This document shows positions 682 through 11,654 of a stretch of 64,000 nucleotides of DNA, in pieces. Numbering within the stretch: the stretch's first letter is position 1; every line of letters starts with the position of its first letter. Below the pieces are notes generated by a model that was given only the letters and a program-made list of their open reading frames with translations, was not told where the DNA came from and searched no databases. The translations under genes and the position numbers were made by a program. Source of the DNA: Alphaproteobacteria bacterium (GTDB taxonomy: Bacteria > Pseudomonadota > Alphaproteobacteria > UBA8366); the NCBI GenBank assembly GCA_965206405.1, contig CBDBJQ010000006.1, forward strand, positions 857,764-921,763. Direction: 5' to 3'.

Positions 682-4845
<4,164 letters not shown>

Positions 4846-4885: not shown

Positions 4886-7800
4886 ATGAACGACGTCATG
4901 GACATCATGCACCATCCGTTTGGCCAACAGGTCGCGGTGCAGAACTTCGACGACATCCGCATTTCGATTGCGTCTCCCGACCAGATGCGGTCCTGGTCCT
5001 ACGGCGAGATCAAGAAGCCGGAAACCATCAATTACCGCACCTTCAAGCCGGAGCGCGACGGCCTGTTCTGCGCCCGCATCTTCGGTCCCATCAAGGACTA
5101 CGAGTGCCTGTGCGGAAAGTACAAGCGGATGAAATACCGCGGCATTTTCTGCGAGAAGTGCGGCGTCGAGGTGACCCTTTCCAAGGTGCGCCGCGAGCGT
5201 ATGGGACATATTGATCTGGCGGCGCCGGTCGCGCATATCTGGTTCCTGAAATCGTTGCCCAGCCGTGTTGGCCTCCTGCTCGACATGACTCTCAAGGATC
5301 TCGAACGGATTCTGTATTTCGAGAGCTACGTCGTCACCGATCCCGGCCTGACGGATCTGGAGATGCATCAGCTTCTCAATGATGAAGAGCATGCCAACGC
5401 TCTCGACGAGTACGGCGACGATACATTCACGGCCGGAATCGGCGCCGAAGCGCTGAGGGGCATGCTGTCCGAGCTCGACCTCGATTTTCAGCAGGAGAAG
5501 ATCCGCGAGGATCTCAAGAACACCAAGTCCGAGGCAAAGCGCAAAAAGCTGGTCAAGCGACTGAAGATGGTCGAGGCGTTCCGCAAGTCGAACACCCGGC
5601 CGGAGTGGATGATCATGGACGTCATGCCGGTGATTCCGCCGGAACTTCGTCCCCTGGTTCCACTCGACGGCGGCCGTTTTGCGACCTCTGACCTCAACGA
5701 TCTTTACCGGCGGGTGATCAACCGCAATAACAGGCTCAAGCGCCTGATCGAACTTCGTGCACCGGACATCATCGTCCGCAACGAAAAGCGGATGCTCCAG
5801 GAAGCGGTCGACGCGCTGCTCGACAACGGTCGGCGTGGCAGGATCATCACCGGCGCCAACAAACGGCCGCTGAAATCCCTCAGCGATATGCTGAAGGGCA
5901 AGCAGGGCCGCTTCCGCCAGAATCTCCTCGGCAAGCGCGTCGATTATTCGGGTCGTTCGGTGATCGTCGTCGGCCCCGACCTGCTTCTGCACCAGTGTGG
6001 CCTGCCGAAGAAGATGGCGCTCGAGTTGTTCAAGCCCTTCATCATGTCGAAGCTCCAGCTCTACGGCATCACGACCACCGTCAAGGCCTCGCGTAAAATG
6101 ATCGAAGAAGAGCGTTCCGAGGTTTGGGACATCCTCGAGGAGGTCATCCGCGAGCATCCGGTCCTACTCAACCGGGCGCCGACGCTCCACCGTCTCGGCA
6201 TCCAGGCGTTCGAGCCGGTGCTGATTGAAGGCAAGGCGATCCAGCTGCATCCGCTGGTCTGCGCTGCGTTCAATGCTGATTTCGACGGCGACCAGATGGC
6301 GGTCCACGTGCCTCTGTCGCCGGAAGCCCGGCTCGAGGCGCGCGTGCTGATGATGTCGACCAACAACATCCTCTCGCCGGCCAACGGCAAGCCGATCATC
6401 GTTCCCTCCCAGGACATCGTGCTCGGCCTCTACTATCTTAGCTACGAGCAGGTCGATGGTAACCGGCCGGTGGTCGAATTCGACAATATCGAGGTGATCG
6501 AGGCCGCATTGACTAGCCACAACGTCATTTTGGTCGATCCCAAACACCCCCATGTCGAGGTCGTCGAGGACAGTGCTGAAAAGGCCCTGAAGGCCATTAA
6601 ATCCGGGAATCTGCGGGCGATCCGGGTGCCGAGCTACGGCTCGCGCGGCGAGATCGATCACGCGATCGCCACCGGAGAGGTTTCGCTGCATACGCGCATA
6701 CGCGCCCGCCGCCAATCCATCGACAACAAGGGGCAGGCCACGGTGGAGACCGTAACCACCACGCCCGGCCGGATGTACCTGGCTGCCCTGCTGCCGGAGA
6801 GTTCGGAGATTCCTTTTGATCTTGTCAACCGGCTTCTCACTAAGCGCGAGATCGGATCCCTGATCGACGAGGTTTACCGCCATTGCGGCCAGAAGGAAAC
6901 CTGCATTTTCGCCGACCAGATGATGCAGATGGGCTTCCACTACGCGACCCAGGCCGGCATATCCTTCGGCAAGGACGATTTGCTTGTCCCTGAGGCCAAG
7001 GGCGATCTGATCGCCAAGGCTCGCGAGGAGGTCAACCTCTATGAGCAGCAGTATATCGACGGGCTAATCACAAAGGGCGAGAAGTACAACAAGGTCATCG
7101 ATGTCTGGTCGACCTGCAGCGACGCTGTCGCCGACGAGATGATGCGCACCATATCCGGCAGCCAGGGCGGGCGGGTCAATTCCGTCTACATGATGGCGCA
7201 TTCCGGAGCCCGGGGGTCGCCCGCGCAGATCAAGCAGCTCGCCGGGATGCGGGGCCTCATGGCCAAGCCGTCGGGAGATATCATTGATACCCCGATCATC
7301 TCCAATTTCAAGGAAGGACTGAACGTCCTCGAGTACTTCAACTCGACCCACGGCGCCCGCAAGGGTCTCGCGGATACGGCGCTCAAGACTGCCAATTCGG
7401 GCTATCTGACCCGGCGTCTGGTCGACGTAGCCCAGGACGCGATCATCATTGAGCAGAACTGCAAGACCAAGAAAGGCTTGGAGGTGAGCACCATCATCGA
7501 CGGTGCCGAAGTCACCGAAAGCCTGTCGGAAAGGCTCATCGGCCGGTTTGCGCTCAACGACATCGTCGACCCGCTGTCCGGGGATCGTATCGTCAAGCGA
7601 AACACGATGATCGAGGAGGTCAAGGCCGAGGCGATCGAACGTGCCGGAATCGACACGGTGAAGGTGCGCTCGCCTCTGACCTGTGAGAGCAGCCGGGGTC
7701 TCTGTGCCTACTGTTATGGGCGCGATCTGGCCCGCGGAACCCTGGTCAACATCGGTGAGGCGGTCGGCGTGATTGCGGCGCAGTCGATCGGCGAGCCGGG

Positions 7801-9283
7801 AACGCAGCTCACCATGCGAACCTTCCATATCGGTGGTGCTGCCCAGCGCGGTGCCGAGCAGTCCTCGATCGAGGCATCTCTCGACGGGATGGTTGTGCTT
7901 CGGAATCTCAACGTGGTCAAAAATTCAAGAGGCCGCTCCGTCGTTGTGAGCCGTAACTGCGTCCTTGTTCTTGTTGATGAGACAGGCAGGGAGCGTGCGC
8001 GCCACAATTTGCGCTACGGCACCAGGCTACATGTCGAGGAAGGCGCGCAGGTGGCTCGCGGCACGGCTCTTGCCGACTGGGATCCCTACACGATTCCGAT
8101 CATCTCGGGCGTTGATGGCACCGCCCAGTACGTCGATCTGGTCGACGGTGTGTCGCTGAACAATGTCGAGGACGAGACGACCGGCCTGTCGACGAACGTG
8201 GTCGTCGACTGGAAACAGCAGTCGAAGGCCGAGGTGTTCAGGCCGCAGGTCGTGATCACCGACGATAAGGGCGAGCCGATCAATCTCGCCAACGGCAACG
8301 AGGCGCGTTACGCCATGTCGGTCGGCGCCATCATCTCGGTCCAGAACGGGCAGAAGATCAAGACCGGCGACGCCATTGCTCGGATTCCGCTCGATACCTC
8401 CAAGACCCACGATATCACGGGCGGTCTGCCCCGGGTTGCGGAGCTGTTCGAGGCCCGGCGGCCGAAGGATTACGCCATCATCAGCGAGATCGACGGTCGC
8501 GTTAAGTTCGGTAAGGACTATAAGGGCAAGCAGCGGATCATTGTTGTGCCTGAGGGAGAGGACGAGGAGAAGGAGTACCTAATTCCCAAAGGCAAGCAGA
8601 TCACCGTGCAGGAGGGCGAGCCCGTCCAGCGCGGCGACATGCTGGTGACCGGCAACCAGGTGCCGCATGATATTCTCGAGATTCTCGGTGTCGAGGCACT
8701 GGCGCATTACCTGATCAAGGAGATCCAGGACGTCTACCGCCTGCAGGGCGTTGCCATCAACGACAAGCATATCGAGGTGATGATCCGACAGATGCTCCAG
8801 AAAGTGGAGATCATTGATCCGGGTTCGACGTTCCTTCTGGCCGGCGAACAGGTCGATCTGAGCGAGCTTGAGGACGCTCAGCAGAAGATCCCGGGCAAAC
8901 GCACCCGCCTGCCCAAGTACCGGCCGGTACTCCAAGGGATCACCAAGGCGGCGCTACAGACGCGATCGTTCATCTCCGCGGCATCCTTCCAGGAAACGAC
9001 ACGGGTTCTCACCGAAGCCGCAGTCAACGGCCGCCTGGATCGTCTCCGGGGTCTCAAGGAGAACGTCATTGTCGGGCGCCTGATCCCTGCCGGCACCGGC
9101 AGCTACCTCAACGAGCTCCGAGGCTTGGCCGGCGAGCGTGACCGGGAGATCCAGCAGAAGCTGGACGAGGCAGAGAAGCTCGCGGCAGCAGAAGCCGAGG
9201 CTCTTGAGGCTGAGGCGGAATATGGCGGGGAGGCCACCAGCCGCGTTTTGCCGGAAAACCGGGAAACGCCAAGCACCCCCTGA
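4886..9283 (+). CDS. rpoC: DNA-directed RNA polymerase subunit beta-prime
   Basis: 1465-aa ORF with the zinc motif [20 protein letters not shown], the catalytic [16 protein letters not shown] and [14 protein letters not shown]. It follows rpoB after 40 nt. Confidence 0.98.
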
Positions 9284-9310
9284 TCAGGCACACCCTGACC
9301 CGGAAAGCGC

Positions 9311-9339
9311 CCGGCGCGCCCTGATCGAGGGCGCGTCGG
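9311..9339 (+). terminator. GC-rich hairpin 28 nt after the rpoC stop (candidate terminator, weak U-tract)
   Basis: CCGGCGCGCCC (9311-9321) pairs with GGGCGCGTCGG (9329-9339): 11 bp including one G-U, with a 7-nt loop. The downstream sequence is pyrimidine-rich but not a clean T-run. Confidence 0.3.
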
Positions 9340-9497
9340 TGCCTGCCCTGTGTTCTGCCCTGCCTGATTTTCGCCAAAGCATTCCGGTATGCGCCCGGGA
9401 ATGCGTTCCGGGGCACGCTCCCGGTTGCCTTCCCTGGTGTGAACGCGAATGACGACCTGTCCGTATCGGGCGTTCAGGATAATCTGTGCCGGAATCA

Positions 9498-10448
9498 TCA
9501 TTCGCTGATCGCCCTCGTTGCGGAATCAGATCGCCCCGGTAATTGGCGGCCGTTGGCGTTGCTTTTCGCTGTATCCGGAAGCTCGCTCGAATAGAGACGA
9601 GTAGCGTCGGGCCGGGTCGCATTGTTTGGGCCGCCCCGGGCCGCACTATCTTTCTTGTCCCAGCGCAGATGCTCGAGGATTGCCCCTCCTTCATCGGCCA
9701 GCATGACATCGTTCCGGCGCTTGCCATCAAACAGCCGGATCAGGGAGGGGCAGCTGCCATCGCGGTTCAGGGCGCGTCCGATCGAGAGGATAGCGCCGGC
9801 AGGATCAATGACTTCACGCCTCTATGCCATGGAAAGCGGGGAAGCGGGGTCGTCGGAAGGCGGCAGGGTTATGACCCGGGCAAAGCCTTTTTCAAAACGA
9901 ATCGTCCGGGTCCGGACGCCGCGGCGACGGCTGCGCCGGGATTCATACGAAGCGGGGCGGATTTCAGGGCAATCCAGCACCGAAAAGGCGCCTTCCGCCT
10001 CGATCTCGTAGCGCCAGCGCGCAAACAGATCGATTTCCCCGATTATCCGCGCAGCGAGCCTGATATGGTAACCTTTGCCATCCAGAAGAATCGCTCCGCG
10101 CGCCTTGCCGATCGGCAGACCCGCCCAATGCCCGACCACCTCGATAGTCCAGGAGGCCAGGGTGACGACAGGGGCGACGGAGGCGACGGAGGCGACGGAG
10201 GCGACGGAGGCGATCTCGGCACTGACGGTTGCCAGCATGGTGGCCGGAATCGCCGGCGCGGCCCCCTCCAATATCGCCCACGGCATACCCAAGATCACCA
10301 GATCGGAAACCGGCCGGGGATTGCAGGCTTTTCGTATTGCCTCGTGATCCGTGGCGCCACTGTGGGTTATCCCGGATTTTCGAAGGTCGGCGAGGATAGC
10401 ATAAGCCCCCGGAACCGCCTCCGAGAAACTATCCTGGGAGACCCTTCG
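9498..10448 (-). pseudogene. Antisense degenerate ORF (orfX) in the rpoC-rpsL spacer, with an in-frame TAG and no canonical start; family unassigned
   Basis: The minus frame reads ...RRVSQDSFSEAVPGAYAILADLRKSGITHSGATDHEAIRKACNPRPVSDLVILGMPWAILEG...GYHIRLAARIIGEIDLFARWRYEIEAEG...LSMA, then TAG (9822-9824), then continues RREVIDPAGAILSIGRALNRDGSCPSLIRLFDGKRRNDVMLADEGG... to TGA at 9498. No ATG/GTG/TTG precedes the protein-like N-terminal part; the first in-frame start codons are the GTG/TTG/ATG of DLVILGM at about 10284-10298. The 5' boundary is approximate. Confidence 0.45.
10173..10214. repeat. 9-bp tandem repeat GGCGACGGA, 4 perfect copies plus a partial copy
   Basis: Read directly: ggcgacgga at 10173, 10182, 10191 and 10200, then ggcgat. 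It is in frame with orfX (minus strand: SVA SVA SVA SVA). Confidence 0.95.
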
Positions 10449-10511
10449 GGAGGTTTCTCGAAGCCTCCCTGAAAGGTCGATTTTTCCTGCATTTATGGTG
10501 TGGATTCGGGG

Positions 10512-10540
10512 TTGACGGAAATCGTCGTCATCCCTATTAT
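10512..10540 (+). promoter_or_regulatory. Sigma70-like promoter candidate for the str operon (rpsL-rpsG-fusA-tuf)
   Basis: TTGACG (10512-10517), a 17-nt spacer, then TATTAT (10535-10540). This is about 255 nt upstream of the rpsL ATG. Confidence 0.4.
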
Positions 10541-10794
10541 CCCCCGGCTTTAATGCGGTGAGGACTGGCTGTAGGCGCTGATGGCCCTGTTGCTGTCGGG
10601 GCAGACCTAGACGTAGTCCGGCCAAACCAGACGCAGAGTGCGGTTTTTGCAGGCCGCAATTATTAAGTTTTCGGGATTCTGGGGTGTGGGTTGTTGCCCT
10701 GTCCGGGTCTCTCGTTGATGCTTGTTGCATCCTCGACTGACGGTGATTCCGTAGCGCGGATGCAGGGGAACAGACAGGGATTCGGAGACGTTTG

Positions 10795-11166
10795 ATGCCG
10801 ACGGTCAACCAGTTGGTCCGCAAGGGACGCAAAAACAAACCGGCTCGCAACAAGGTCCCGGCGCTGAATGCCTGCCCGCAAAAACGGGGTGTCTGCACGC
10901 GCGTCTACACCACGACCCCCAAAAAGCCGAACTCGGCTCTGCGCAAAGTCGCCCGTGTCCGTCTGACTAACGGCTTCGAGGTGACGAGCTACATTCCCGG
11001 TGAGGGGCATAACTTGCAGGAGCATTCGGTTGTCCTGATCCGCGGTGGCCGCGTCAAGGATCTGCCGGGCGTCCGCTATCACATCATTCGCGGCACCCTG
11101 GACACACAAGGTGTCGATGACCGCCGCCAGCGTCGTTCTAAATACGGCGCCAAACGGCCGCGCTAG
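10795..11166 (+). CDS. rpsL: 30S ribosomal protein S12
   Basis: 123 aa from ATG 10795 (the ORF-track TTG at 10792 adds one codon). Reads [12 protein letters not shown]...[36 protein letters not shown]. Confidence 0.97.
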
Positions 11167-11183
11167 GTCCGGGGGAAGATTCA

Positions 11184-11654
11184 ATGTCGCGACGTCGCCG
11201 TGCAGCCAAGAGAGATCTTCTTCCTGATGCTAAGTTCGGGGACGTTGTGCTGAGCAAGTTCATCAACAGTGTGATGCGCGATGGCAAGAAGTCGGTTGCC
11301 GAGCGCATCGTTTACGGTGCTCTCGACCAGATCAGCGCGCGAAACAGCGGCGATGTCGTAAGGCTGTTTCATGATGCGATCGAGAACGTCAAACCGGAGC
11401 TTGAGGTGCGATCCCGCCGTGTCGGCGGTGCCACTTACCAGGTTCCGGTGGCCGTTCGTGCCGAGCGGGCCCAGGCTCTCGCCTTCCGATGGCTCATCCA
11501 GATAGCGCGAAGTCGGTCTGAGAACACCATGACCGAGCGGCTTTCCGCAGAGCTCATGGATGCGGCCGGCAACAAGGGTGGGGCGGTCAAGAAACGGGAA
11601 GACACGCACCGAATGGCCGAGGCCAACCGGGCCTTTTCCCACTATCGCTGGTAA
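11184..11654 (+). CDS. rpsG: 30S ribosomal protein S7
   Basis: 156 aa: [19 protein letters not shown]...[17 protein letters not shown]... It lies 17 nt after rpsL. Confidence 0.97.

Follow-up and report, generated by a model that had tools for sequence, protein, structure and literature searches.

In a 64,000-nucleotide (nt) stretch of an alphaproteobacterial genome (Alphaproteobacteria bacterium, GTDB lineage UBA8366; assembly GCA_965206405.1, contig CBDBJQ010000006.1, positions 857,764 to 921,763; hereafter the window), genes for RNA polymerase, elongation factors and ribosomal proteins form a 29-kb array on the plus strand, and the question raised by this locus is why rpoC and rpsL stand so far apart in it, with coding-like sequence on the opposite strand between them. 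An earlier, sequence-only reading of the window had given the distance as 1,511 nt and had remarked on how short the neighboring junctions are, both of which hold: the rpoC stop codon (TGA, 9281-9283) and the rpsL start codon (ATG, from 10795) enclose a gap of 1,511 nt, and the spacings are 40 nt for rpoB-rpoC, 17 nt for rpsL-rpsG, 23 nt for rpsG-fusA, and 27 nt for fusA-tuf. For the antisense sequence it had offered a gene remnant, a decaying regulator, or a source of antisense RNA as explanations. Here, we report that this sequence is real coding-like sequence by its open frame, codon usage, and homology, and that, as judged from the sequence and its homologs, it is a DUF3108-family (PF11306) pseudogene preserved over its full length, in other words an ordinary dead gene. 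We consider it very probable that the junction as a whole is an ordinary operon boundary, where rpoBC ends and the str operon starts, which has gained one extra gene (about 1.1 kb of extra sequence) that is now dead.

To place the antisense frame in a protein family, we relied foremost on an exhaustive phmmer search of 1.84 billion representative proteins, which gave 277 proteins at E ≤ 1e-3 and 16 at E ≤ 1e-10. The three best matches (3.1e-26 with 38% identity, 5.8e-21, and 3.0e-19) all bear PF11306 in their precomputed annotation. The alignments all cross an in-frame TAG codon and end near query residue 200, with the matched proteins running on for about 65 residues, because from there the homology moves to a second high-scoring segment pair (HSP) in a different frame, as revealed by tblastn. 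Here, the homologs P0001 and P0002 each gave two collinear HSPs, the first in frame A (codon starts at 2 mod 3; 10244/10250 to 9636/9693) and the second in frame B (0 mod 3; 9639 to 9433/9427), which together cover residues 1-264 of the 264-residue P0002 and contain stop codons at 9822-9824 and 9526-9528. Frame A thus serves to about 9640 and frame B from about 9639 to about 9427, the remnant spanning the whole length of homologs of 257-264 residues, with candidate ATG start codons at 10286 and 10238. The Pfam profile for DUF3108 scores 12.9 bits with the N-terminal open reading frame (ORF) alone, which is weak and sub-threshold, and 25.6 bits (E = 1.3e-5, profile positions 5-145 of 209) with the translation read through the TAG, the match spanning the stop codon. 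When the raw ORFs of both strands were compared with Pfam and NCBIfam, nothing was found beyond this sub-threshold DUF3108 match on the minus-strand ORF. Against a 279-position profile made from 150 phmmer matches, the repaired translation aligned to positions 17-266 with 171 bits, a score that is somewhat circular since the profile was built from matches to the pseudogene sequence itself.

As in other DUF3108 proteins, the length is about 260-290 residues, the N-terminus forms a hydrophobic leader, and the conserved blocks follow one another in the same order ('Y.v..gG...G', 'W....e..G', 'lDP.SA', 'G.C....pvFDGrrR', 'RC...eR.aGf', 'vW', and 'PvR...t..G'), though the remnant is at most 38% identical to the known members. 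The DUF3108 fold is described as an outer-membrane beta-barrel, YmcC-like, with a signal peptide (PMC4364669), and for the pseudogene this description is taken from the literature only; a sequence-profile search of the Protein Data Bank (PDB) matched no chain. The gene that decayed here was therefore a member of this family and not the regulator once suggested.

Unlike intact DUF3108 genes, the remnant contains two in-frame stop codons and a frameshift, lacks the second conserved cysteine, and has no stop codon of its own. Across the first stop codon, homology is found on both sides, with '...PLSMA*RREVIDPAGAIL...' in the remnant set against '...LPEDARRGVLDPASAVL...' in a homolog. The frameshift, a deletion of one nucleotide, lies in an interval that contains the G/C run gcggcccggggcggccc. 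At the second stop codon, a TGA one step away from TGG, 'ITGAI*FRNEGD' in the remnant is aligned to 'FGGEIWFEKTDD' and 'MKGEIWFRAYGD' in the homologs. Beyond these, frame B runs on without a stop codon to 9103. As for the residues conserved in the family (alignment A1), the first cysteine and the FDG are kept, the second, near-invariant cysteine has become tyrosine, and the codon for the tryptophan of 'vW' has become TGA, a pattern that fits the decay of a former DUF3108 member. The presumed signal peptide is hydrophobic and looks degenerate, being without the basic residues of its homologs, and within it an in-frame repeat, GGCGACGGA, encodes (SVA)n; slippage under relaxed selection may have expanded it. 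As a full-length gene with three or more disabling lesions, the antisense sequence bears out, among the options proposed, that of a decaying gene remnant. The coordinates of these and the other features are collected in Table 1.

Table 1. Positions of the features in and around the rpoC-rpsL junction of the window, and of matching leaders and junction genes at other alphaproteobacterial loci
Feature	Locus	Position	Strand	Basis or remark
DUF3108-family (PF11306) pseudogene, full-length	window	9427-10286	-	homology, read-through translation, codon usage
Lesion 1, in-frame TAG	window	9822-9824	-	'cta' on the + strand
Lesion 2, frameshift by 1-nt deletion	window	within 9612-9665	-	alignment leaves frame A (to 9636) for frame B (from 9639)
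Lesion 3, TGA for the conserved Trp of 'GEIWF'	window	9526-9528	-	'tca' on the + strand
9-nt tandem repeat GGCGACGGA, 4.6 copies	window	10173-10213	-	Tandem Repeats Finder, 100% matches
Strong GC hairpin	window	9309-9341	.	arms 9311-9322 / 9328-9339, 92% complementary; -39.1 kcal/mol, z = -4.1
Terminator-like element	window	10440-10485	+	bulged hairpin 10440-10478 (-23 kcal/mol), GA, TTTTT 10481-10485
rpsL (str operon) promoter, TTGACG-17-TATTAT	window	10512-10540	+	10/12 consensus matches
rpsL 5' leader hairpin	window	10558-10623	+	matched by covariance models R1 and R2
rpoC (RNA polymerase beta')	window	4886-9283	+	ORF of 1465 aa; left border of the junction
rpsL (ribosomal protein S12)	window	10795-11166	+	ORF; right border of the junction
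Leader matches	L085, L092, L049, L010	7012-7057, 7055-7100, 7044-7090, 4795-4838		covariance model
Leader matches	L091, L088, L002, and 18 more	7040-7081, 7067-7110, 7067-7115		covariance model
SLT transglycosylase	L006 (Magnetospirillum sp.)	8460-9464	-	Pfam
GT2	L059	3140-4189	-	Pfam
Rhamnosyl transferase	L060 (Shimia)	7929-8774	-	Pfam; likewise in L079
DinB	L055 (Ruegeria)	6964-7563	-	Pfam
Cupin-like ORF	L095 (second-closest relative)	2855-3442	+	in the rpoC-rpsL slot

Several points weigh against this reading of the junction. In Pfam, the read-through translation falls 0.4 bits short of the DUF3108 gathering cut-off (26), and no match was returned when 5.8 billion proteins were queried with it in a word-indexed search, because of which the family membership rests on the exhaustive phmmer search and the Pfam labels of the matched proteins. 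Upstream of the pseudogene start, a further 169 codons are open, unexplained, and of negative codon usage. No close relative was found in the collections searched, and an intact copy of the gene at the site in relatives, its insertion as opposed to ancestry, and relaxed constraint (dN/dS) are presumptive at most; flanking direct repeats, target-site duplications, and traces of mobile elements were also sought, none of them turning up in convincing form. Finally, the lesions are seen in the assembly only, and the frameshift falls in the G/C run, where assembly errors occur.

This last point bears on an alternative in which the organism has an intact DUF3108 gene as an ordinary occupant of the junction, the three lesions being errors of sequencing or assembly. 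Such a G/C-rich run is indeed a typical place for an indel error, and, moreover, the codon usage is still gene-like and the homologs can be aligned over the whole length. Two of the lesions, however, are stop-creating substitutions, one of them at a conserved tryptophan, and errors of this kind are rare. Three lesions in 860 nt also stand in contrast to the uninterrupted rpoB, rpoC, fusA, tuf, and ribosomal protein genes around them, and because the genes in the rest of the 29-kb array are all intact, a generally error-prone assembly is unlikely. Decay extends further as well, to the near-invariant cysteine, the stop codon missing from its expected range, and the signal peptide without basic residues. 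We thus regard an intact gene as improbable and the lesions as probably real.

To see what other lineages have at this position, we surveyed 160 alphaproteobacterial loci downstream of rpoC, in 98 of which rpsL was found by tblastn, while a further 48 had no rpsL within at least 1.5 kb. The gap between the two genes is 600 nt or less in 45 of the 98 loci and longer, up to 5.6 kb, in the other 53; in most of the nearest relatives it is 240-520 nt. Expanded gaps hold between one and six unrelated genes on either strand, opposite-strand genes being frequent (Table 1), and EamA-like ORFs are also among their contents. The view that a gene running against the flow is unusual at this place is thus not upheld. 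A gene in this slot is common, even in the opposing direction, and it is this particular gene that is lineage-specific. As with the junction genes of other lineages, it sits between the rpoC stop codon and the rpsL promoter, though it differs from them in its family and in being dead. None of the 160 loci contains a DUF3108 homolog, and a scan of metagenomes with the repaired protein found nothing. The RpoC C-terminal part shares 60-72% identity with alphaproteobacterial RpoC among the matches listed, with nothing above 72% among those listed for the GTDB species genomes and JGI metagenomes or in the set of 5.8 billion proteins, and the exact RpsL sequence is not on record. Also among the matches listed, the nearest lineages are Rhodospirillales-like, and include Fodinicurvata, Stellaceae, Azospirillum, Magnetospirillaceae, and Kiloniellales.

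The nearest DUF3108 homologs adjoin ThiC or GCS2/AstE and not the rpoC-rpsL junction. On the short contig of the closest of them, P0001 (L081), the 3' end of the P0001 gene is overlapped by a convergent gene (868-945, minus strand) with an acidic tail at its end (...EEEGGGECREREARADHPGAAFRRM); too short for a firm assignment, this gene may or may not be an RpoC C-terminus and with it a sign of shared synteny.

The last ~350 nt before rpsL resemble the native rpoC-rpsL spacer of relatives with compact junctions, in that a terminator-like hairpin, a promoter, and a structured leader follow one another. The hairpin proposed earlier at 10447-10468 is borne out as the core of a longer stem, and, with its G+C-rich stem and T-run, the element at 10440-10485 has the makings of an intrinsic (Rho-independent) terminator, termination itself being putative; a simple terminator scanner passed over it, owing to the bulges. 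It lies 26 nt upstream of the -35 box of the rpsL promoter, and a hairpin with a T-run is likewise found 35-86 nt upstream of the -35 box in L001, L086, L093, L091, and L134. By its placement, the element looks to correspond to the rpoC terminator of compact-spacer relatives, with the pseudogene now in between. The promoter, too, had been picked out by the sequence-only reading, and its position is conserved in relatives. Specifically, it aligns with TTGACG-17-TAGTAT of L001, a metagenome-assembled genome with a 398-nt spacer, to which the first ~100 nt of the leader can also be aligned; when three parts of the gap were compared with 163 loci by blastn, this leader similarity to L001 was the sole finding. 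Taken with the variable contents of the slot, this suggests that in Alphaproteobacteria insertions have recurred at the rpoC-rpsL boundary, beside a fixed module of terminator, promoter, and leader.

On the rpoC side, the hairpin earlier placed at 9311-9339 is indeed a strong one. It starts 26 nt past the rpoC stop codon, between the convergent rpoC and pseudogene, and has no T-run on either strand, making it a candidate for a bidirectional terminator or a stabilizer of RNA 3' ends. A second hairpin had been proposed at 9379-9404, where the inverted repeat is present, though its folding is no better than that of shuffled sequences (z = -1.15).

These elements also bear on the possibility that the remnant has been kept for a role of its DNA or transcript, as a long 3' untranslated region (UTR) of rpoC, an antisense RNA tuning the end of rpoBC or the start of str, or an insulating spacer. 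The hairpin right after rpoC is without a T-run, and the only canonical plus-strand terminator of the hairpin-plus-T-run kind (10440-10485) is downstream of the remnant, meaning that rpoBC transcripts may run antisense through it. However, no relative among those searched carries the remnant sequence, leaving no conservation to draw on; nor does it match an Rfam family, as a search of window positions 9000-11200 with Rfam 15 at E ≤ 1 gave nothing but a chance-level gntR-DTE inside the pseudogene. The sole minus-strand promoter-like site (10071-10042, 9/12 matches) lies within the remnant, and the slot in other lineages is either empty or filled with unrelated genes, which argues against a required function of this particular sequence. 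A retained role of this sort is in our estimation quite improbable. No evidence supports a present function of the remnant, and nothing indicates that it serves as a source of antisense RNA.

The extent of the antisense frame needs some adjustment. On the minus strand, a single frame stays open between 10898 and 9498, with one interruption at the TAG, and of the range of 9498-10448 given before, the frame stands and the limits do not: the homology runs from about 10250 (10286 with the candidate start codon) to about 9427, with the change of frame near 9640. A C-terminus in frame A down to 9498 is likewise wrong, as the homologs switch to frame B near 9640. When the six frames were scored by codon-usage log-odds trained on the window's own genes, the minus-strand frame outscored the other five between roughly 9520 and 10240; its values range from -0.08 to 0.39, as compared with 0.25-0.44 for rpoC. 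Most of them are positive, the slightly negative ones being near the TAG, and between 10240 and 10780 none of the six frames has a coding-like score. A plus-strand ORF of 309 codons (9543-10472) was rejected as a shadow of the minus-strand frame, the second codon position being common to both.

The stop-free upstream extension (10287-10898, minus strand) crosses the rpsL promoter and leader and reaches into rpsL itself. In a Markov simulation, so long an open stretch had a probability of about 0.012 in that frame, and of 0.047 when all six frames were allowed. We treated the extension as due to chance and not as part of the gene, given its negative codon usage, its lack of a family match, and its overlap with the conserved promoter and leader.

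Chance has also to be considered for the antisense frame as a whole, in which case high G+C content would have left it open and the region would be a long leader or spacer without a gene. Its G+C content at third codon positions (GC3) of 0.65 is below the 0.72-0.81 of the window's real genes, ORFs of more than 300 codons occur on both strands, and the word-indexed protein search was empty, though 277 homologs with E-values down to 3e-26, aligned in register over the full length and labeled with PF11306, refute this notion and leave it with next to no probability. Equally hard to credit is programmed recoding, by stop-codon read-through and frameshifting or by UGA being read as tryptophan: the TGA does fall exactly at the conserved tryptophan position, as it would under genetic code 4, yet no nonsense change is more common than TGG to TGA, no in-frame TGA at a tryptophan is visible in the ribosomal array of the window, the TAG and the frameshift would require two more independent recoding events, and UGA as tryptophan is rejected by rpoC itself, which ends with TGA where its homologs end.

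Returning to the ordinary operon boundary with one dead gene added, we can envisage how the junction came about. The pseudogene is convergent with rpoC and divergent from rpsL, and the DUF3108 gene would have been inserted upstream of the old terminator and promoter module, presumably carrying with it the hairpins at the 3' end and ~150 nt of upstream sequence of its own. Transcripts of rpoBC would then either end at the T-less hairpin (9309-9341) or read antisense through the remnant as far as 10485. Read-through of this kind, from the highly transcribed rpoBC operon, would interfere with transcription of a convergent gene and may thereby have made its loss easier, and the remnant as it now stands would make no functional protein. 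The odd 1.5-kb gap can in this way be put down to a decaying gene, which occupies a slot where many Alphaproteobacteria have unrelated genes. For annotation, a DUF3108 pseudogene is the appropriate label for positions ~9427-10286 of the minus strand, in preference to two short hypothetical ORFs.

Of more interest than the dead gene, and a separate lead, is the hairpin in the rpsL 5' leader, which begins ~10-15 nt into the predicted rpsL transcript. Its outer stem (GGACUG/UAGUCC) and inner stem (UAGG/CCUA) enclose a 4x4 internal loop, GCUG / GACG in this genome and GUGG / GACG in most relatives, and are topped by an extended apical hairpin; the general form is GGGRCUG-GUGG-UAGnnn-loop-nnnCUA-GACG-CAGYCCC. 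Two covariance models were made, R1 from three sequences and R2 from five short forms. With R2, a search of both strands of 1.6 Mb gave 26 matches, all on the plus strand, and 25 of these are 113-178 nt upstream of rpsL in Rhodospirillales-like lineages (Table 1). Moreover, all 26 loci have the TTGAC box of a TTGAC-17-TAnnAT promoter 36-46 nt upstream of the hairpin. Pairing is found in 92.8% of the cells of the alignment, as compared with at most 52% when the partners are slid, compensatory changes occur in 12 of the 14 pairs, and there are 61 double-change cells versus 16.8 +/- 3.3 in shuffles, all in an alignment that was fitted to the model and somewhat favors the structure. In a MAFFT alignment of five sequences, 94% of the cells are paired and 6 of the 14 pairs are compensatory. 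Folding of single sequences is not significant (z of ~0 to -1.3), the structure having emerged from comparative analysis alone.

To our knowledge, no leader of this kind has been described for the str (or str-S10-spc) transcription unit of Alphaproteobacteria. The hairpin matched no Rfam 15 family in the search of the window at E ≤ 1, a search of the L092 and L085 spacers with Rfam 15 at E ≤ 10 gave only noise, and a 2020 survey of ribosomal leaders has none for rpsL in Alphaproteobacteria (PMC7247131). The rpsL motif of 'Candidatus Pelagibacter ubique' consists of a bulged P1 stem and a three-stem junction, and is confined to that organism and marine metagenomes (PMC2704228). Like that motif, the leader described here follows rpoC and precedes rpsL, within the 5' UTR of the gene that opens a long ribosomal protein array; its structure has covariation support. 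Judged by the published description, it differs in consisting of one hairpin, whose 4x4 internal loop is conserved, and in occurring in Rhodospirillales-like lineages. In Escherichia coli, the S7 site is located in the S12-S7 intercistronic region of the str operon (PMC3616713), an arrangement for which there is no room in this genome because the rpsL-rpsG spacer is only 17 nt.

We give somewhat less than an even chance to the hairpin being a ribosomal-protein leader not described before (one that binds a protein encoded in str, S10, or spc) or a 5'-end stability element, with the terminator-promoter-leader module spared by the insertion because it is under selection. If the hairpin does bind a ribosomal protein, a regulatory RNA would be added for the str (or str-S10-spc) transcription unit. 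As to the possible partner, the remaining R2 match is from Azospirillum oryzae (L005 11596-11640, NZ_FXAK01000007.1), where the hairpin comes after tuf, 243 nt upstream of rpsJ, with a TTGACA promoter; this placement hints that the partner of the leader, if there is any, is encoded in the S10/spc part and is neither the rpsL nor the rpsG product.

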